From an uncultured archaeon (GTDB lineage: Archaea; Asgardarchaeota; Lokiarchaeia; Sigyniarchaeales; Promethearchaeaceae), in contig CAYRPF010000023.1 of NCBI GenBank assembly GCA_964426185.1, positions 1-11,773 on the forward strand: a stretch of DNA of 11,773 bases, read 5' to 3'. A program made the translations under genes and the position numbers. The notes under the pieces were generated by a model that was not told the DNA's origin, did not search any database, and saw only the letters and a program-made list of their open reading frames with translations. Each line of letters begins with the position of its first letter. The stretch's first letter is position 1. Below, piece by piece: positions 3,136-11,676 of the stretch.

Positions 3136-5256
3136 TCACAAGTCGAATTTTCCCAATTTAAATGCAGCTTTGAACCCAGAATGTATTGCGTCTAAAATTG
3201 TTCCCACTTTTTTCGCATCTCCGACATATTTAATTTTCGGTTTTTTCGTTTTCTCTATTTTTTTCTGTTTCTCACGTGATTTGATGTATTCTAAAATTTC
3301 TTCTCCAATTGTGCGATTTGGGGTTACACCTGTTGCTAAAAGAACGTTGTTTACATCAGTTAAAGTGTGCATATTACCGTTTGTTTTATTTTCTTCCAAT
3401 GATCTTTCTTGATAAACAACCTTATTTCCCTCGATTCTCTGCACATTTACATTCGTATGAACTTCTATTCCTAATTTCTTTAGTTCATCTAAAAAAACCC
3501 ATTTTGTGGATTTTCCAATGCCGTTACCAATTTTAGGGAGATATTCCAGCAGAATTACTTCACGATCACCTTGATAAGTCCGTTGCATGGCTTCGTCAGC
3601 AGTTAATCCTTCATAAAAACTTAAAAAACGGGCAATCTTGGGATCCATTGCTCCTTTTTTGGCTGCCCAAATAGCTGTTTCCACTCCAGTTGCCGCTCCA
3701 CCAATAACTACTACTTTTTTACCTATAGCTACATTTCCATTCAAAGCTTCGTCTGCAGGACTCACCGGGCATTCATCGGTTCCTTCAATACCAAGAATTG
3801 GAGGTATTTTATAATTTACACCAGTTGCAATCAAGATATAATCTGGATTTTGCTCCAAAATCTTCTCTGGACGGACTTCTGTATTTAGATGCAGCTCAAT
3901 CGGCAAAGAATTTATCTGCTCTTGATAATAGTCAATGATGCGTTTCAAGTCTTCTCTTCCAGGAGGGACATGTGCTACATTTATTTGTCCTCCTATGGTG
4001 CTGGATTTTTCATAGATTATCACTTGATGACCATTACTCGATGCAACTCGAGCAGCTTCTAAACCCGCAGGTCCTGCACCAATGATTACAATTTTCTTGG
4101 GATTGTCGATTGATTTTATTTCACTTATCTTATTTTCATTCATAGCTAGTGGATTAACCATGCAAGATAGTGATTTCAATTGGAAAATCGCATCAAAGCA
4201 ACCTTGATTACAACCTACACAATATCTTAATTGAGTAAGATTGTCCGTTTGCACCTTTTTAGGAAGATCTGGGTCGGCTACTAATGGACGTCCAAAACAA
4301 ATGGCGTCTGCATAAAAATCTTGCAGTAATGATTCACCTATACGAGGGTCATTTATTCTGTTGCTCGCAAATACTGGAATATTTACCACTTGCTTGATTT
4401 CTTTGGCTAAATAGGCAAATGCTCCTGAAGGAGTATCCATTGGAAGTTGGGGAACGCGTGTTTCATGCCAACCTCCAGTTACGTTCAGATATTCAATCCC
4501 AGCTTTGGCATATTCCTTCGCCACGATTTTTTTCTCTTTGTAGGTATTACTCCCGGGAACAAAATCATCGCCCGAAAGCCTACAGCCTATGATAATTTGA
4601 TGGCCAATTCTTTTTTTCAATTTTTGAATTAATTCGAGTGGAAAAGTTAATCTTTCTTGGATATTATTGCCTCCGTAACGATCTTTTCGTTTGTTTTTAA
4701 GCGGAGAAAGAAACTGATCGATCAGATAACCTGCAGAGCTTACTATTTCCACACTATCAAAACCAGCTTTAACCGCGCGTTCGCCTGCAACACATATATT
4801 TTCAATTACTTCTCCCACTTCAGTGGTGGTTAATTCACGCGGTACTTCATGTGTGAAGCGTGAATATACAGCAGAGCTGGATACAGCTTGTTCACCGATA
4901 ATCTGACTGTAAGCATACGCACCAGCATGATATAATTGAGCGCAAATTTTGGCACCTTCTTTGTGGACTACTTGGACTAGATTGGCCAGTCTTGGAATAT
5001 ATTTGTCATCTTCGATGGAAAGCATAAGTGGAGCACCGGCACCTCTGCGGGAAACAGCAATGCCTCCTACAATAATCATTCCCACGCCACCTTGAGCACG
5101 CCTTTGATAAAACCTAATAATTTTTTCCGAAACAAAGCCCTCTTCTGAAGCACCTAGATGCATAGCCGGCATTATCATTCGATTTCGAAGTGTCAATTTT
5201 CCGATTTGAAGTGGTTGAACCAATTTATGAAATTTCATGATATTTAGCTGATTCAT
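3136..5256 (-). CDS. fadH: NADPH-dependent 2,4-dienoyl-CoA reductase-like flavoenzyme (OYE TIM barrel + 4Fe-4S + FAD/NAD(P) domains)
   Basis: LRNRMIMPAMH start of an OYE barrel. SSAGYLIDQFLSP and GGWHETRVP match the FadH Tyr/His catalytic motifs. CVGCNQGC-x11-C is the 4Fe-4S motif. Rossmann motifs IIGAGPAG and VIGGAATG. The real start may be the ATG at 5238. Confidence 0.9.
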   Translation of the reverse strand: MNQLNIMKFHKLVQPLQIGKLTLRNRMIMPAMHLGASEEGFVSEKIIRFYQRRAQGGVGMIIVGGIAVSRRGAGAPLMLSIEDDKYIPRLANLVQVVHKEGAKICAQLYHAGAYAYSQIIGEQAVSSSAVYSRFTHEVPRELTTTEVGEVIENICVAGERAVKAGFDSVEIVSSAGYLIDQFLSPLKNKRKDRYGGNNIQERLTFPLELIQKLKKRIGHQIIIGCRLSGDDFVPGSNTYKEKKIVAKEYAKAGIEYLNVTGGWHETRVPQLPMDTPSGAFAYLAKEIKQVVNIPVFASNRINDPRIGESLLQDFYADAICFGRPLVADPDLPKKVQTDNLTQLRYCVGCNQGCFDAIFQLKSLSCMVNPLAMNENKISEIKSIDNPKKIVIIGAGPAGLEAARVASSNGHQVIIYEKSSTIGGQINVAHVPPGREDLKRIIDYYQEQINSLPIELHLNTEVRPEKILEQNPDYILIATGVNYKIPPILGIEGTDECPVSPADEALNGNVAIGKKVVVIGGAATGVETAIWAAKKGAMDPKIARFLSFYEGLTADEAMQRTYQGDREVILLEYLPKIGNGIGKSTKWVFLDELKKLGIEVHTNVNVQRIEGNKVVYQERSLEENKTNGNMHTLTDVNNVLLATGVTPNRTIGEEILEYIKSREKQKKIEKTKKPKIKYVGDAKKVGTILDAIHSGFKAAFKLGKFDL

Positions 5257-5330: not shown

Positions 5331-6449
5331 TTAGAAAAAGATATTAGTGAAATCAAAGATGCTTTTGAATACAGACTCCAAATTCTCAATTAAACAAGCA
5401 ACTCGGTAATAATCATAAAAAGTATGACCATCTTGAATCAACTGCGTGTTTGGTGCCAGAGACATCCATTTCGTTTCTAAAATTGCACCGTCTCGTCGAA
5501 ATTTCTGAATTAAAGACATGACATTTTCATTCATTCCTATGGAAGAACCCTTTTCTGATACAAAATCGCGCAGTAAATCGGCCAATATTCCGAATTCGTC
5601 ATGAATAATCACAAAAAAATCCTGCAAATATTCTAAAAGATTTAATTCAACAATAATTTTGTAATGATTTACAAGTATGCTTGCGATTTCTTTTAGATTA
5701 TCTCCGACATCTTCAATTATTTTAGCCAGTAAGCGCAAATCGATTAGTTTTTTATGCGAATAATTCAAAGGTTTGGAAATTTGTGGATGTTCAAAGATGG
5801 TTCGTATTTGTCGAACAATGAAAAAGTAGTAGCGATCTATCTTCTGATCTTGCAAATTTAAAGATGGCAAATTTTCCAAAGACTCGGTTTTTAAAGCATC
5901 TTGAAGGTCATCGAGCATCCAAATCAAAATACTAAAACATTCTCGGATATAACGTGGAATTTCTTCTTGGAATATGTTCTCTGGGCTTTCAGAAAAGACA
6001 TTCTTGATTAGTAATTTATGATTGGAAACTTGGTTTAGATTCCAATTAAACAATAATCTTTCTTGAGCTTGTTCAATTTGCTCGATTAATTTCTTAGGAA
6101 TATTGCCTTTACTGATTATTTCAACGCCTGCAGCTCCATTCATATAATAACTAATCAAAATAAGTTGAATTCCTTTCTGCTCGATAAATTTAGGGTTCTT
6201 TTTGATAACTTCATCCAAATCAAATAAAAAAACTTTACTTTGAGCCGATTTTTCCAAAGAAGTTGGATATAGGGCCAATGAACCATCAGGTTGTTCGAAC
6301 ATATTAATGATTGCATCTGAACTTGTGTTAGATGAAGAATTGGAGTCTGTCTTAGGTTCTAACCCGTGCTTTTGAATCCAATATTTAGGAAGGGTAATGG
6401 CATAACTGTATTTGGCAAATTTTTGAATTTTTCTCCGATTGATTTCCAT
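5331..6449 (-). CDS. Archaeal phosphate-uptake-regulator-like protein: N-terminal AbrB/SpoVT DNA-binding domain plus PhoU helical domains
   Basis: RRKIQKFAKYSYAITLPKYW...QPDGSLALYP is an AbrB/MazE-type swapped hairpin. LISYYMNGAAGVEI, DQKIDRYYFFIVRQ and AKIIEDVGDNL match the archaeal AbrB-PhoU family pattern. Confidence 0.85.
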   Translation of the reverse strand: MEINRRKIQKFAKYSYAITLPKYWIQKHGLEPKTDSNSSSNTSSDAIINMFEQPDGSLALYPTSLEKSAQSKVFLFDLDEVIKKNPKFIEQKGIQLILISYYMNGAAGVEIISKGNIPKKLIEQIEQAQERLLFNWNLNQVSNHKLLIKNVFSESPENIFQEEIPRYIRECFSILIWMLDDLQDALKTESLENLPSLNLQDQKIDRYYFFIVRQIRTIFEHPQISKPLNYSHKKLIDLRLLAKIIEDVGDNLKEIASILVNHYKIIVELNLLEYLQDFFVIIHDEFGILADLLRDFVSEKGSSIGMNENVMSLIQKFRRDGAILETKWMSLAPNTQLIQDGHTFYDYYRVACLIENLESVFKSIFDFTNIFF

Positions 6450-6499
6450 TATAGGTTCATCTTGTTGTAAAAAATACCGAATATACTAGTTAATATTAT

Positions 6500-6520
6500 A
6501 TATAAAATATAAATTCTCGT
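6500..6520 (-). promoter_or_regulatory. Candidate BRE-TATA promoter for the AbrB-PhoU gene
   Basis: Minus strand ACGAGAA-TTTATAT followed by a second TATA-like AT run, about 60 nt upstream of the ATG at 6449. Confidence 0.45.
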
Positions 6521-6546
6521 TTTTTTTTCCTCTTGGTTCTTGAGAT

Positions 6547-7524
6547 TTACTTGAAATTGAGCAATACTTTTGATAAAACATTGAAGATTTCTCCGCTTTC
6601 TCCCCAGATAGTTACATACTTTGGAGATTGTTGTTTGTGCGTGGAATTACTTTCAATAACAAATGGATAGCTAAAAATATAACCAATAAATTTTTGATCT
6701 TTCAATATTATCTCCATAATGTTAAATTCGCTCCCTTGTATGTTGGAAAAATTAAAGTTATTTTTAGCCGGATCTTGCTTCATTATTTGATATTGAGATA
6801 AATTGCGTGTTTTTTCTTCAATATATCCTTTGCGTTCGAGTTTATAGCGAAATTTTATTCCATTGATATGATATTGATGGAGAAATTGGATGATCTGATC
6901 TTGTCTACTTTCTGGATGAACTTCAGCCAGAAAAATCCCCCCAAATAGTGGATAAGGGTCTTGTTCTTTAATAAATTCCAAGGCAGTAAGTCGAAATTGC
7001 CGTTGTTCGTTATTAATCGTAATAGTTATACCATATTCTCCGTTAAAAATTTGTAAATTGGAAGATTTTTGAATTTTATCAATCAATTTAACCGCAAAAT
7101 TCGAAGCATGAGAAGGAATGGAATGATATAAAACGTTTTTTGATGAATCGCCCTTATTTTCGGCATTGATGGCATCAATAATGGTTACGATGTCATAAAA
7201 ACTACTTTTTTGAGCTTGCAAGTGACTTACAGTTTGCTCAATTTCTGAATTAAGCATTTCTCGAAATAAATTCTTATCAATTATAGTATATTTCAAAGGA
7301 TGAGTTCCAATCTGGATGATCCATCCTTGTTTTTTCAGATTCTTTAATCTTCGATAAAGTTGTGGTTTTTTAGAATTTTGGTTAGGAAACATGTGATGCT
7401 GAAGATTTTTAACCGACATTATCCCGTGTTGAAGTAGATAGAATATAATTTCTACATCCAACGGATGAGGGAAGAAATGTTGCAATTTTTGATGTAATTT
7501 ACTTAACTGTAGGGAATCCACCAT
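6547..7524 (-). CDS. TrmB-family-like winged-helix transcriptional regulator with an unrecognised C-terminal domain
   Basis: DVEIIFYLLQHGIMSVKNL...KPQLYRRLKNLKKQGWII...THPLKY followed by a coiled helix matches the TrmB N-terminal wHTH pattern. The ATG at 7524 overlaps the upstream TAA (TAATG); the ORF-track start at 7539 is an alternative. Confidence 0.72.
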   Translation of the reverse strand: MVDSLQLSKLHQKLQHFFPHPLDVEIIFYLLQHGIMSVKNLQHHMFPNQNSKKPQLYRRLKNLKKQGWIIQIGTHPLKYTIIDKNLFREMLNSEIEQTVSHLQAQKSSFYDIVTIIDAINAENKGDSSKNVLYHSIPSHASNFAVKLIDKIQKSSNLQIFNGEYGITITINNEQRQFRLTALEFIKEQDPYPLFGGIFLAEVHPESRQDQIIQFLHQYHINGIKFRYKLERKGYIEEKTRNLSQYQIMKQDPAKNNFNFSNIQGSEFNIMEIILKDQKFIGYIFSYPFVIESNSTHKQQSPKYVTIWGESGEIFNVLSKVLLNFK

Positions 7525-8474
7525 TAATCTTTGCACCATTCTGTCATTGAGAAAGACATTTTTTCGAGTTTCTGGTCTATTTGCTGACGAGAGGGTATTT
7601 CGATTGCTTTGGAAACAGATTGTAACAATTTATCTAATTCGTTTTGAGCTTGATTGACATTTTGTTGAAAATCTGCCAATCCTTGACCAAAAACTAAAGC
7701 TACAGGAAAAATTTCCACATGGTTAGGACCCAAAGAAGGAATTGACCATTGGAGTCCAATTGATAAATCTGTAGAATGAGGATGTAAAAAATCACGAAGC
7801 TTAAGGCGTTCTGGCGAGATCAAAATAGATTCAGGGGTGTTCCCTTCAAAATGTATGGGAATTCTATCTTTTACAGAAACAATCCCTGCAATTAAACCCT
7901 TTTCTAGAGGAAATCGCGAATCATATTGAAAAATTGCACCTGTAGTTGAATCGTAATCCACTCGGTCAGAATCATAGTAATCTTGACCGTAAATATCAAA
8001 GTCATAAAATTGATAGAAATTTATGTCTTTAAGTGGATTTGGTGTAACATTCCTAAAAGAATAGAAGAAAAGAATGTACGGTTTAGAAATAAAACGATAA
8101 ACATCAACATATTCAATAATATAAGCAAGAAGTTCAGTGTCTTTTGGGGTTATTTTTTGAATTTCAGGATGGAAATTCATGATATATCGATATGTAAATC
8201 GTGAGAGAGTGGAATTTTTGTTGTGTTTTGCGTTAATCATTGCAAATATTGGCTGTTTGGAGGGATTATTTAGCGCATGCGAATTTTCTAAACTTCGTAT
8301 TAAAATTGGAACGGAGCAATAATTAAATGCTAAACATGGACCGTTCAGATAAGGTTGGGGTAAATCTAATACTAACTGCTTTTGATATGATATTTTTTTT
8401 AAAGTATAACCAAATGAATATCCTTTTTCTTTGCAATTTACACAAATCGTTTCGTAATCAATTTCAACTTGCAT
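7524..8474 (-). CDS. Uncharacterised protein, probably a beta-supersandwich resembling the non-catalytic N-terminal domains of GH15-type enzymes
   Basis: 316-aa ORF. The ATG at 8474 with upstream GGTGTGA is preferred over the TTG at 8489. The pattern YILFFYSFRN..LKDINFYQFYDFDIYG..DRVDYD..DLSIGLQWSIPSLGPN..FPVALVFG alternates like beta-strands. The fold call is a by-eye resemblance only. Confidence 0.6.
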   Translation of the reverse strand: MQVEIDYETICVNCKEKGYSFGYTLKKISYQKQLVLDLPQPYLNGPCLAFNYCSVPILIRSLENSHALNNPSKQPIFAMINAKHNKNSTLSRFTYRYIMNFHPEIQKITPKDTELLAYIIEYVDVYRFISKPYILFFYSFRNVTPNPLKDINFYQFYDFDIYGQDYYDSDRVDYDSTTGAIFQYDSRFPLEKGLIAGIVSVKDRIPIHFEGNTPESILISPERLKLRDFLHPHSTDLSIGLQWSIPSLGPNHVEIFPVALVFGQGLADFQQNVNQAQNELDKLLQSVSKAIEIPSRQQIDQKLEKMSFSMTEWCKD

Positions 8475-8523
8475 GAAATTCACACCCAAAAGCGGATTGG
8501 AAAAAAATCAATTTAAGCAAAGA

Positions 8524-9489
8524 TTAAAATCGTTCGATAAATTTATACGCCGCATATTGAAAGGCATCGAAGACATTGTTTCCTGTCTTAGCTGATGTTA
8601 ATAAATAGGGACAGCCTAATTTATCCGCCTTTGCTACGATTTCATCAAGACTTACCTCTTGCTCAACTAAGTCAGTTTTTGTGGCAATAAGCATTATGGA
8701 AACCTTCCGATCCACGCTACTCTGCATATCATTTAACCATTGCTCTATGTTTTCAAAAGATCTTCGGCGTGAAATATCAAAAGCAAGAAAAGCAAAATCT
8801 GCACCTTGATAAAAACGCTTTCGATATGGACTCATAGTTGCTATTTGACCACCTATATCCCAAATCGAAAGAACTACTTTTGAATCTTCTTTAAAAGAAA
8901 TTTCTTTTCTTAAAATATCCACCCCAATAGTGCTTATATAGCTTTCTTTGAATTGATTATCTACAAATCTCCGAATTAACGAGGTTTTTCCCACCATAGG
9001 GTCGCCTAAAACAATTATTTTTGCAGAGAAATTACCTTTGGGGAACTCAATTCGCTTTAAATTAGCTAAAATATGGATTATCGGGGGTATTTCAGATTGG
9101 ATCTCATCACCATTAAGGACTAATTGTATTTTCTTCGCAATATGTTCTCCATAAACTTTCAATCGATTGTCTTGGACGGTTTTTTCTGCCAAAACGGTTA
9201 AGATTGCGTTTTCGCCTGCAGAAACAAATAGCATTTTTTGATCATCAACAGATAATATAGTAACAAATTCCTTAGCGGTTCCTAAATCAGTCTTTATACG
9301 ATTAATAAAGGAATCAAATACAGCAGTAACTGCTCCGATAGCTTCATCTTCTGTTTGCTCGCTGTGCAATTTGCTATAAATTATTAATCCATCGCGATCG
9401 ACTATTGCAGATGCCTTTATCTCTGGAACTTCATCCATCATTTCAGAAATTAATTGTTCGAATAATTCTGTATCAGTTTGTCGATTCAT
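8524..9489 (-). CDS. Roadblock/LC7 (MglB-like) domain fused to a Ras-superfamily, Rab-like small GTPase (eukaryotic signature protein)
   Basis: Residues ~10-125 (VPEIKASAIVDRDGLIIYS...AGENAILTVLA) fit Roadblock. GTPase motifs: G1 GDPMVGKTS (8980-9006), G2 STIGVDI, G3 WDIGGQ (8845-8862), FYQGA, G4 TKTD (8671-8682), G5 TSAKTG (8581-8598). Confidence 0.93.
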   Translation of the reverse strand: MNRQTDTELFEQLISEMMDEVPEIKASAIVDRDGLIIYSKLHSEQTEDEAIGAVTAVFDSFINRIKTDLGTAKEFVTILSVDDQKMLFVSAGENAILTVLAEKTVQDNRLKVYGEHIAKKIQLVLNGDEIQSEIPPIIHILANLKRIEFPKGNFSAKIIVLGDPMVGKTSLIRRFVDNQFKESYISTIGVDILRKEISFKEDSKVVLSIWDIGGQIATMSPYRKRFYQGADFAFLAFDISRRRSFENIEQWLNDMQSSVDRKVSIMLIATKTDLVEQEVSLDEIVAKADKLGCPYLLTSAKTGNNVFDAFQYAAYKFIERF

Positions 9490-9543
9490 AAAGCTTCACA
9501 ATTGTTATATGATGGTAATGCAGTTCTTTCCAAAAAATATTTG

Positions 9544-11676
9544 TTATTTTTCTTTGATAACTGGCCGGTAAAAATGTCTTGCTTTTAGTCTTAAGAAACA
9601 ATAATGGATTTTTTCTTTTAAAATTGTCAAAATTTCAAATGGAAGCAAGAAATATCGTAGAATAAAAACATTAAAGTGAAAATTCGCTGGTAAATTTTGA
9701 TGAAAAATATATTTAGGTATTATTGAAGATTCAGGAAGCAATTTGGGAAGGAGGGGAACTATATCTCGGGGATGATCTTTTTCATTAAAAAATCCGTTGT
9801 GTACCACTTCTTCTTTTTGGAATAATGAATGCAAAGGGGAGCGATAATCTCTTAGAATTCCCAAAATCATGCCTTGAATAAATGGCTTAGTTTTTGCTAC
9901 TTTTATTTGAGAAATCAGATAATTTTTTGCATGGAATTGAAACTCTGCAATATCATTATCCAAATTTTTAGTTTTTCGATTATGAGAAGATGCAAATTGG
10001 GTAATTATTACAGGTTTACGCCGGTGGAAGCTATAAATAGTATCCAATATCCAAGAAAATTGGGGTAATCCTCCATAGGTAGAGTTAAATTGTAGATTTT
10101 TACATACAACATCAATTCTTTTATGTATCCCATTAAAAAGAATCTTATTTGTTGCAACACTGATTAATCGGCTGGGGTCCCAATGTTTTGTGTAATATAT
10201 AAGATCAGATAAGAAACGGCGGGAGAAATAGCTGAAGGTATCTATTTCGTTACCAATTATCCAGAGAATTACGCTGGGATGGTTATAATCTCTATTTATC
10301 ATTTGATAAATCATTTTCATGGCTAATTTTCGCGTTTTTGAATCATGAAGCCGAATATTCTTTACCATCGGAATTTCACTAAATATTAATATTCCCTCTT
10401 CGTCTGCTAAATCCAGCAAAGAGGGAACGTGAGGATAATAAGAAGGATAGAGAGTATTCATTCCTAAAGATTTCAACCGCAAGATATCACGCCGGTAAAT
10501 CTCATTTAGATAATCCATTCCGTGTAGATTCTTTTCATCTCTAATCGCAGCTCCAATTAACCGGATTGGGCGATTATTTAAAATGATTTGTCCTTTCTTC
10601 ACTTCGATTTGTCTAATTCCAAACCTGACTTCTTTATCTTCATCAATTCCGTTCAAATGAAGTTTGATCAAATATAAATCGGGTGTGTCTGGGGTCCACA
10701 GCGACGGATTTTGAATGTCTATATGAAAAAGAGTATTATAGTCTTTTGAATCTGCATCCAAGTCTAAATATTGGTGCTTTTTATTTTCCTTTCGTTCTTT
10801 TCGATTTAGTCGTTTTAAGAAATTCTTTGATTCAGAAGAAAAATACGTTTCCAAATCAATTATCTCATCGATCTGTTCAATTTCATCAAGAATTTCATCA
10901 AAATATTCTTCAAGTGATTCTTGATCGTGAGAAATATGATTTAAAGGGGGTAAAATCTCTGGATTTATTTCAAGAGTCCCAGTTTGGATAAGAATTTGAT
11001 TAAACTGTTGTTCACCATCAAAAAATCTTCCTAAATAATAAAGTTCCCATTCTGCTTGAGGCTCAATTTGCATAGCATAGCAGCGATCGAGAAATTCTTG
11101 AGTGTTTTTGATGCTAAAATTGACATAAACTGTTGCCATGGAAATATGGGACGGTTTTACTTTGGTAGTTACTTTTATTTTTATAATTCGAGTTTTTTCT
11201 AAAATCAGTAATTTTACCGATCTATGAATTCCACCCCAATTATACCAATCATAAACTTCAGCGGGAATCCCTTTTCGATCGAGAGCATTCGAGACACGTA
11301 CAACAAGGTAATTTTCTCCTGTAATTGCAATCAGCCTAGGATTAAATATAAAACGGAAAGGCAAAAATCCCCCATAGTTATCTCCCAAATAATTACCATT
11401 GAGCCAAACTTGAGTGTAATAATTAGATCCTTCAAATTCAATGGAATATTCGTGTGATTTAGGGCGGTAGGGTATATCAGGAAGTTTTCTTATATACCAA
11501 ACAGTTCCTGCATAGCGATTCAATCCTGGTAAAGTATTAAAACTGGATGGGACTTTAATGGAAAGCACTGGTTCTGAAGGAGATTGCACCCAATTAATAG
11601 AATACCACTTCTTTTGGATTCCAATATTTTCAGGGTCCAAAACTAAATTCCATGTTCCATCTAAATAAATGTCCAT
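9544..11676 (-). CDS. Glycoside hydrolase family 2 (beta-glucuronidase/galactosidase-like) homolog, probably catalytically impaired
   Basis: GH2 motifs: LDGTWN, FEGSNYYTQVWLNG, GGFLPF, DWYNWGGIHRSV, PSLWTPDTPDLY, RFGIRQI, RDYNHPSVILWIIGNE. The nucleophile motif reads PVIITQF instead of PxxxTEFG. Confidence 0.9.
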   Translation of the reverse strand: MDIYLDGTWNLVLDPENIGIQKKWYSINWVQSPSEPVLSIKVPSSFNTLPGLNRYAGTVWYIRKLPDIPYRPKSHEYSIEFEGSNYYTQVWLNGNYLGDNYGGFLPFRFIFNPRLIAITGENYLVVRVSNALDRKGIPAEVYDWYNWGGIHRSVKLLILEKTRIIKIKVTTKVKPSHISMATVYVNFSIKNTQEFLDRCYAMQIEPQAEWELYYLGRFFDGEQQFNQILIQTGTLEINPEILPPLNHISHDQESLEEYFDEILDEIEQIDEIIDLETYFSSESKNFLKRLNRKERKENKKHQYLDLDADSKDYNTLFHIDIQNPSLWTPDTPDLYLIKLHLNGIDEDKEVRFGIRQIEVKKGQIILNNRPIRLIGAAIRDEKNLHGMDYLNEIYRRDILRLKSLGMNTLYPSYYPHVPSLLDLADEEGILIFSEIPMVKNIRLHDSKTRKLAMKMIYQMINRDYNHPSVILWIIGNEIDTFSYFSRRFLSDLIYYTKHWDPSRLISVATNKILFNGIHKRIDVVCKNLQFNSTYGGLPQFSWILDTIYSFHRRKPVIITQFASSHNRKTKNLDNDIAEFQFHAKNYLISQIKVAKTKPFIQGMILGILRDYRSPLHSLFQKEEVVHNGFFNEKDHPRDIVPLLPKLLPESSIIPKYIFHQNLPANFHFNVFILRYFLLPFEILTILKEKIHYCFLRLKARHFYRPVIKEK

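Follow-up and report, generated by a model that had tools for sequence, protein, structure and literature searches.

Roadblock domains regulate or dimerize small GTPases. MglA/MglB, Rag/Gtr–Ragulator and the Roadblock GTPases (RB-GTPases) of Promethearchaeum syntrophicum MK-D1 (PMC10933270) all combine a Roadblock domain with a G domain of the Ras superfamily. Tran et al. 2024 (PMC10933270) described the RB-GTPase architectures of strain MK-D1 and state that its GTPase genes do not, as a rule, share operons with regulators. Asgard archaea contain dozens of eukaryote-like small GTPases. As the genes are seldom found beside regulators (PMC10933270), hardly any of these GTPases can be assigned a partner. 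Asgard archaea also contain selenoproteins, among them SelD, HdrA, FrhD/VhuD, FrhA/VhuU, Prx-like, AhpF-N-like and DsbA-like proteins (PMC4989117, PMC11227280). The accessible parts of the published lists give seven families and were built by homology to known families (PMC11227280, PMC4989117, PMC13188914).

We analyzed a stretch of 11,773 nt (the window) from contig CAYRPF010000023.1 of an uncultured archaeon of the Promethearchaeaceae. The window carries five genes that encode a glycoside hydrolase family 2 (GH2)-like protein, an RB-GTPase, an orphan protein, a winged helix-turn-helix (wHTH) protein with some likeness to TrmB, and an AbrB-PhoU protein. It sits on contig C23 of an Asgard genome (3.26 Mb, 92% complete) that has 39 small-GTPase matches. 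The cluster proved real. At its core stands an ancient pair, a GTPase and a member of a predicted selenoprotein family. Unlike the MK-D1 GTPases in general (PMC10933270), the window GTPase has two conserved neighbors, the GH2-like protein and the orphan. The orphan has a selenocysteine (Sec)/Cys pair, and no sequence signature of catalytic or redox function is stronger. An archaeal small GTPase thus gains a rare candidate partner, apparently a redox-active one.

Gene order across Asgard genomes

Synteny was tested by tblastn of the window proteins against fetched loci. The order GH2-like, RB-GTPase, orphan, wHTH, AbrB-PhoU and old yellow enzyme (OYE)-type reductase was kept in closed genomes of three genera: a Lokiarchaeota metagenome-assembled genome (G001), Ca. 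Lokiarchaeum ossiferum (G010) and P. syntrophicum (G011). Draft genomes of the same genera had the identical gene order. The full cluster thus recurs in several genera of the family of the window, to which P. syntrophicum and Ca. L. ossiferum both belong. The five genes form a conserved cluster in Promethearchaeaceae-type Lokiarchaeia. A reading made earlier from the letters of the window alone (the sequence-only reading) had proposed the five genes as one nutrient-sensing module and tied the proposal to gene order conserved beyond this strain. This condition held: three or more genera of the family keep the five-gene order, and the GTPase–orphan pair is kept throughout the order.

The RB-GTPase gene was followed by the orphan gene on the same strand in 7/8 genomes of the window's family and in 54 of the 55 genomes of a second family (f3) that had enough upstream sequence. 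The gaps were 25–205 nt over both families and 73–205 nt in f3. The surroundings of the pair in f3 were variable and included MscS channels, DNA methylases, a cyclase and an SNF2 helicase; the GH2-like, TrmB-like and PhoU-like genes were not part of its neighborhood. The pair was single-copy and near-universal in f3 (124/135 genomes). The adjacent GTPase was 41–46% identical across the two families, whereas paralogs within a genome were 27–31% identical, indicating that it is one orthologous GTPase. The conserved core is therefore a two-gene unit, a Roadblock–Rab-like GTPase gene followed on the same strand by the gene for a supersandwich protein of ~310 aa, of which the window's orphan is a member.

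The other three genes had a narrower distribution. An insert-bearing GH2-like gene of ~700 aa was present in 13/13 searched genomes of the window's family. Other families had only ordinary GH2 genes of ~605 aa, located elsewhere in the genome. The GH2-like, TrmB-like and AbrB-PhoU genes are additions of one family and lie outside the conserved core. In genome G005 the orphan gene had been relocated, and the GH2-like gene was still adjacent to the RB-GTPase gene, which makes the GTPase the hub of the cluster.

A predicted selenoprotein family with a Cys form in the window

Pfam had no family for the orphan. Its AlphaFold model consisted of a supersandwich followed by helices (predicted local distance difference test score, pLDDT, 86.9; predicted template modeling score 0.88). 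The model aligned with the N-domains of GH94 phosphorylases, cyclic beta-1,2-glucan synthase, GH116 and GH15 (e.g., 8RF9, 8BOU, 1V7V and 1LF6) at Z 18–21 over ~235 residues (VIA; Z 19–21, with 229–242 residues aligned, for the GH94, cyclic-glucan-synthase and GH15 domains) with a root-mean-square deviation of ~3 Å, and Foldseek matched it to supersandwich folds at E 1e-8. As modeled, the orphan looks like the front part of a GH94/GH15-type enzyme minus the catalytic barrel. It differs from these enzymes in standing alone, without the (alpha/alpha)6 catalytic domain, in its low identity to them (9–12%), and in having gained an N-terminal (C)xxU/C hairpin (U, Sec) and a C-terminal Cys tail.

A profile search of 1.8 billion representatives returned only ~35 full-length orphan clusters. 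Residues ~120–270, including an invariant DFDxxG, gave weaker matches to N-terminal regions of large secreted or surface proteins, some of them transglutaminase-like. The matched regions had no Pfam domain and gave no functional lead.

Single-copy homologs of the orphan were present in 54/61 relatives in the genome search, and nearly all of those outside the window's family had exactly one in-frame TGA. Across the phylum, 216 of the 400 genomes searched had a member of the family. In over 100 relatives, the TGA aligned with Cys14 of the window protein, which is the second Cys of its CVNC motif. All 55 sequences examined had TGA at the Cys14 codon and no other stop upstream. The 12 codons 5' of the TGA had position entropies of 0.85/0.44/1.57, a coding periodicity, versus 1.5/1.5/1.4 in the spacer further upstream. 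The forms from Thor-type genomes (family f31) and from family f28 were shorter and had no C-terminal tail, and their CxxU was kept at the same place.

The Sec-form genes of f3 (L029–L040, L056–L104) had no ATG, GTG or TTG at the conserved N-terminus. Codon −13 from the TGA was ATA in 40/55, 9–11 nt past a conserved GGAGGT, which points to ATA/ATT as a possible non-canonical start for these genes.

In f3, every gene had a conserved hairpin directly after the stop codon, with the layout of a eukaryote-like selenocysteine insertion sequence (SECIS): AUGA, then a helix of 8 bp and an apical AAAA loop that carries a ministem, with UGA on the return strand. When 12 copies were used to build a covariance model, it gave a single match 3' of the gene in 56/56 f3 loci. 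No match of this model was found in Cys-form, f2, f4 or Thor-type loci. Compensatory changes were seen in 10/14 pairs, and 95% of the cells paired, versus at most 48% when the partners were slid. In a whole-genome scan the model also matched directly after a two-TGA FlpD/VhuD gene, a known selenoprotein gene. Rfam SECIS families had no match in 11 loci at E up to 10.

Other hairpins were observed after the stop codons of the other Sec forms. Thor-type loci (L105–L108, L111) had a covarying 9-bp stem with a GUAAAG/GAAAG loop, and those of the further family f4 (L026–L028) had a CCCAAG-N4-CUUGGG hairpin. Both are unlike the f3 SECIS, and they may be candidates for other SECIS types. The f3 model also matched after two membrane-type open reading frames (ORFs) of ~63–66 aa with one in-frame TGA each (e.g., CLPUG), at L045:1304-1571 (G051:C5) and L046 (G025:C51:24901-24971 and upstream). 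These two ORFs may encode further small selenoproteins.

Since Cys14 aligned with the TGA of SECIS-bearing relatives, the window's orphan is best read as the Cys form of a selenoprotein family. The alignments and SECIS elements show an Asgard-wide family with an invariant position in the turn of an N-terminal beta-hairpin; most lineages are predicted to have Sec there (UGA plus a 3'-untranslated region (3'-UTR) SECIS), and the window's family has Cys. A tRNA-Sec above the cut-off and SepSecS were present in the window genome (G000) and in G001, G010, G011 and G042, indicating that the Cys form did not arise from loss of the Sec trait. Sec is found in the outgroups and in 3/4 families of the order, which makes a derived state the simplest reading of the Cys in the window's family. 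The sequence-only reading had seen no evident intact catalytic site apart from the GTPase switch. That claim did not hold, as the orphan has a candidate active site whose invariant Cys corresponds to Sec in relatives. Its view of the orphan beta-sandwich as a catalytically dead glycosidase fold was right in part: the protein is glycosidase-derived and has no glycosidase catalytic domain, but the invariant Sec/Cys and the C-terminal Cys speak against an inert protein.

Databases annotated the Sec forms as hypothetical proteins of 283–289 aa that begin after the TGA. Public annotation thus truncates them, because the Sec lies ~14 residues from the N-terminus. Both cultured Asgard archaea have the Cys form (DSAG12_02345 and NEF87_004727), and a search of the accessible papers found none that names either locus tag. 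The family did not appear in the accessible parts of the published Asgard selenoprotein lists (PMC11227280, PMC4989117, PMC13188914). Huang et al. 2024 connect a hypothetical protein, MBD3157761.1, with the Sec machinery, and this protein may or may not be a member. Its relatives resemble the selenoproteins listed there (PMC4989117, PMC11227280) in having one in-frame UGA aligned to a Cys. Their 3'-UTR hairpin (AUGA...AA...GA with an apical ministem) has the same architecture as the one after VhuD in the same genome. Differences are that neither the orphan family nor a supersandwich fold is in those lists, as far as they are accessible (PMC4989117, PMC11227280), and that the window's copy has Cys in this position and lacks a SECIS. 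The family is a new, widespread, Asgard-specific predicted selenoprotein, with a fold that the accessible lists describe for none of their seven families.

In the model, Cys14 was located in the first beta-hairpin turn and Cys314 in the flexible tail, and both residues were invariant. In f3, the tail Cys was present in 55/55 sequences, and a Cys at −3 from the Sec was present in 4/55 (lost in 51/55). Thor-type forms were the reverse, with no tail and the CxxU kept. With the tail of the VWA fusion in genome G014 (described below) left aside, every member examined kept at least one partner Cys for the Sec/Cys. A selenenylsulfide or disulfide redox couple would require such a partner. Sec/Cys14 and Cys314 point to a probable redox or selenium chemistry rather than to sugar sensing.

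Several loci showed other arrangements of these genes. In f4, a gene for ~310 aa stood directly upstream of the Sec-form gene in place of the GTPase gene (L026:10770-11699, L027:7777-8790, L028:2959-3900). It was rejected as a diverged RB-GTPase (hhalign probability 0.05, no Pfam match). In G014, the supersandwich, with a CKWU motif, was fused to a C-terminal von Willebrand A (VWA) domain in a protein of ~725 aa (L025:2047-4221, minus strand). The orthologous RB-GTPase gene lay 1.7 kb from the fusion on the opposite strand, downstream of HypD. HypD, a hydrogenase maturation gene, was directly upstream of the RB-GTPase gene in G014 (L025:4750-5871) and adjoined the supersandwich gene in G005 (L024:2599-3702). 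As a general feature this adjacency was rejected, HypD being elsewhere in G000, G001, G010, G042 and G051. In f28, the gene for a 247-aa CxxU homolog had a glycine-cleavage-H-like gene and then a convergently oriented SepSecS gene downstream (L109:6048-8675 and L110) and a radical-SAM gene on its other side; both loci came from one genus.

The GTPase, its companions and the possible role of the cluster

The GTPase fusion matched Robl_LC7 PF03259 at 33.7 bits (cut-off 23) over residues 14–101 and Ras PF00071 at 138 bits. Its G1–G5 motifs were intact (G1 GDPMVGKTS, G2 T187, G3 WDIGGQ, G4 TKTD, G5 TSAK). The closest solved chains to the G domain were Rab1, Sec4, Rab11 and Thor-Rab. The protein did not have the Rag/Gtr layout: the Roadblock precedes the G domain, and Gtr1_RagA scored 28.6 bits versus 138.5 for Ras. 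The analogy to Ragulator–Rag drawn in the sequence-only reading was not supported at the level of the GTPase: the G domain is Rab-like, and the N-terminal place of the Roadblock is the reverse of the Rag domain order. A complex prediction of the RB-GTPase with the orphan, for which the alignment held natural table-11 sequences and database proteins only, gave a score of 0.01 and spoke neither for nor against binding.

The GH2-like protein matched PF02837, PF00703 and PF02836 (GH2_N, GH2 and GH2_C), all above the cut-off, and solved beta-glucuronidases at E 1e-46. Gln560 aligned with the nucleophile Glu, so that the ITEF/ITEYG motif was not present. The acid/base Glu477 was retained in the N-E motif (IIGNE) of the window protein. 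Among four orthologs, the nucleophile position was Q/E/E/K and the acid/base motif NE/YE/YK/SD. The family-specific insert and several non-catalytic blocks were almost invariant in the same four proteins. As catalytic residues drift while the insert and the non-catalytic blocks stay conserved, the alignments show a family-specific pseudoenzyme whose gene is kept beside the GTPase gene. The pseudo-GH2 call made from the letters alone was borne out by Gln560 in place of the nucleophile and by the drift of both catalytic positions among orthologs. The protein has the three-domain architecture of GH2 beta-glucuronidases and galactosidases (6NCY; E. coli GUS 3K46). It differs from them in the nucleophile Gln, the drifting catalytic sites, an insert of ~100 aa, and a gene that stands beside a GTPase gene instead of sugar-use genes.

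The wHTH protein scored 18.6 bits with the TrmB helix-turn-helix PF01978, below the cut-off of 25.6, and had no TrmB_C Pfam match. A word-based homolog search gave 3 proteins only, and the structure model rests on 9 sequences. The model (pLDDT 82) combined a winged helix with a helix of 40 residues and an alpha/beta domain. Its top Foldseek matches were TrmBL2 and TrmB, weak ones (E 1e-3 to 1e-2) that covered the N-terminal half. VIA gave Z 10.9 to TrmBL2 5BPD over 112 residues, a value that generic wHTH proteins equaled, and the fold searches hardly covered the C-terminal domain. The protein appears to share the wHTH and a long dimerization-type helix with TrmB/TrmBL2 (3QPH, 5BOX/5BPD) and differs in its Pfam score below the cut-off and its unmatched C-terminal domain. 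The earlier call of a TrmB-like regulator is probably right for the DNA-binding half, the part that the matches cover.

The AbrB-PhoU protein matched PhoU PF01895 at 30.4 bits (cut-off 23.5) in a single stretch, residues 170–258, and scored far below the cut-off with full-length PhoU equivalog models. Its N-terminus matched MazE/AbrB PF04014 at 19.1 bits (cut-off 24.7) over residues 15–34 only. Its likeness to PhoU is one PhoU domain; it differs by the AbrB-like N-terminus, and here its gene is not beside pst genes. The ortholog in G001 was 81% identical, the gene was syntenic in three genera, and the window genome had one distant paralog. Overall, Pfam and NCBIfam reproduced the domain calls of the sequence-only reading: three GH2 domains, Roadblock plus Ras, a sub-threshold TrmB helix-turn-helix, PhoU, and a sub-threshold AbrB/MazE.

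On the reading that we favor, the locus encodes a GTPase module with a thiol/selenol gate, to which the window's family has added genes of its own; we give this statement, taken whole, roughly an even chance. In this mechanism, Sec/Cys14 would be a redox-active nucleophile that cycles against a resolving Cys, which would be Cys314 on the flexible C-terminal tail or, in the tail-less Thor-type forms, the Cys at −3. How the supersandwich protein acts on the neighboring GTPase, whether as its regulator or its effector, would then be gated by the protein's redox or selenium state. This gating step is by itself a tentative proposal, rather less likely than not. The Roadblock domain of the GTPase probably serves dimerization or self-regulation. 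In the window's family, the switch would have gained a non-catalytic GH2 scaffold or ligand-binding partner, and two DNA-binding proteins (TrmB-like and AbrB-PhoU) as its likely transcriptional output. The fullest version is similarly doubtful: that there is an ancient Asgard-specific pair, a Rab-like GTPase with built-in Roadblock switched by the redox or selenium state of a Sec supersandwich protein, and that the lineage of both cultured Asgard archaea has added to it two transcription factors and a scaffold made of a dead glycosidase. If true, it would be the first archaeal small-GTPase pathway with an identifiable input, switch and output. Because both cultured Asgard archaea have the Cys form, the link to the GTPase could be tested by ordinary recombinant biochemistry without selenoprotein expression.

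Several points weigh against the gated module. The orphan gene occurs without an adjacent GTPase gene in f4, Thor-type genomes and f28, so that the supersandwich protein has a function independent of the RB-GTPase, and the pair is split in G005. T-runs in the gaps and a possible promoter before the AbrB-PhoU gene make co-transcription uncertain. The redox role comes only from the conservation of the Sec/Cys, which could instead ligate a metal or a substrate.

The nutrient sensor proposed by the sequence-only reading, in which two non-catalytic glycosidase-derived proteins bind sugars and feed the GTPase while transcription responds to nutrients through the TrmB-like and AbrB-PhoU proteins, is in our judgment rather unlikely. 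Both proteins flanking the GTPase do have glycosidase-derived folds, the GH2-like protein keeps its sugar-binding domain, its TIM barrel and conserved non-catalytic blocks, TrmBL2 and TrmB are the best structural matches of the wHTH protein, and the cluster is conserved in the family. However, the f3 core lacks the GH2-like, TrmB-like and PhoU-like genes, and no sugar or phosphate transport or catabolic gene was found within the cluster. An invariant Sec/Cys would be unexpected in a sugar sensor, the TrmB likeness is limited to the DNA-binding half with no TrmB_C match, and the GTPase has a Rab-like G domain and a domain order opposite to that of Rag. Pure sugar sensing has less support than thiol/selenol gating. 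The persistence of the pair in f3, where the surroundings vary and the pair alone remains with fixed orientation and a spacer of ~100 nt, also tells against the idea that the genes are conserved neighbors without a direct functional link, held together by shared regulation or slow genome rearrangement. Synteny in the family extends to the unrelated OYE-type reductase, AAA+ ATPase and HSP20 genes, and the pair is split or absent in some lineages, which would fit such an idea; we consider it unlikely.

The tight adjacency of the pair on one strand in more than 60 genomes would also suit an enzyme with a G-protein helper. The supersandwich protein would then be an enzyme or a carrier of selenium, sulfur or metal, and the GTPase would aid its loading, assembly or localization, as G-protein chaperones of metalloenzymes do. 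The Sec/Cys and its partner Cys could hold a metal or a selenium or sulfur species, and the HypD neighbors in G005 and G014 and the SepSecS neighbor in f28 are weak leads in the same direction. Known G-protein metallochaperones belong to the SIMIBI class of GTPases, unlike the Rab-like G domain here, HypD is elsewhere in five other genomes, and the SepSecS adjacency is seen in one genus only. We judge this explanation improbable. A place in an anti-virus defense island is far less probable still. Neighbors in f3 include type II/IIG methyltransferases and a ZorD/DpdE-like SNF2 helicase, in G005 the gene adjoins a type ISP enzyme, and the AAA+ ATPase upstream in the window's family has a weak BrxC/D match. 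Defense systems are typically patchy in distribution, and the pair is single-copy and nearly universal in f3. A PADLOC search of the five proteins matched no defense model except a generic GH2 region. After these alternatives, the thiol/selenol-gated module remains the reading that we prefer.

Gene layout and neighboring genes

The five genes are listed with their features in Table 1. All five ORFs are on the minus strand, and the gaps in order are 54, 49, −1 and 97 nt, which reproduced the coordinates and gaps of the co-oriented genes in the sequence-only reading. The −1 gap requires the second ATG of the wHTH frame as start. This start is supported by the TAATG overlap with the TAA stop of the orphan gene and by the same start residue in the G001 ortholog. 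T-runs were present in the 54-nt and 49-nt gaps, and a TATA-like TTTATATTTTATATATAA was found near 6500–6515, ahead of the AbrB-PhoU gene, in agreement with the T-runs and the promoter at ~6510 noted earlier.

Table 1. Positions of the genes, domains and key residues in the window
Feature	Position	Strand	Basis or remark
GH2-like pseudoenzyme, 710 aa	9544..11676	-	GH2 sugar-binding, Ig-like and TIM-barrel domains (Pfam, NCBIfam)
Conserved ~100-aa insert, domain 2 of GH2-like protein	~residues 190-300		ortholog alignment
Gln560 codon	9997..9999	-	position of the GH2 nucleophile Glu (IITQF vs IVTEF)
Glu477 codon	10246..10248	-	retained acid/base Glu (IIGNE)
Roadblock–Rab-like GTPase fusion, 321 aa	8524..9489	-	Pfam, motifs, ortholog alignment
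Roadblock domain of the GTPase fusion	~residues 14-101 = 9187-9450	-	
G domain of the GTPase fusion	residues 157-315 = 8545-9021	-	
Orphan, 316 aa; predicted Cys form of Asgard selenoprotein family	7524..8474	-	stand-alone supersandwich and C-terminal helical tail
Orphan Cys14 codon, second Cys of CVNC	8433..8435	-	invariant; aligned with in-frame TGA (Sec) of relatives
Orphan Cys314 codon (EWCKD)	7533..7535	-	near-terminal Cys, invariant in the order-level family
wHTH regulator, 325 aa	6547..7524	-	winged helix, long coiled-coil helix, C-terminal alpha/beta domain
AbrB/SpoVT-like N-terminus and PhoU-domain protein, 372 aa	5331..6449	-	Pfam, NCBIfam
97-nt spacer with A-run and TATA-like element; possible internal promoter of AbrB-PhoU gene	6450..6546	-	read from sequence

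Upstream of position 11676, beyond the window, a gene for a ~630-aa AAA+ ATPase (70–72% identical across genera) and a divergent HSP20-domain gene were syntenic with the cluster in the closed genomes (L021–L023; L021:13377-16371) and in the G006 draft (L120). In f3, a gene for 624 aa often stood upstream of the GTPase gene; it encodes an Eco57I/TaqI_C-type methyltransferase. The AAA+ ATPase upstream of the GH2-like gene was considered as a homolog of this protein and rejected, the two being not homologous. At the other end, the cluster was followed on the same strand by a gene for a 706-aa OYE/flavin mononucleotide and pyridine-nucleotide-disulfide oxidoreductase, which is 2,4-dienoyl-CoA-reductase-like (window 3136-5256, minus strand). 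This reductase was 59–70% identical and syntenic in three genera, which places a flavin redox enzyme beside the putative redox module.

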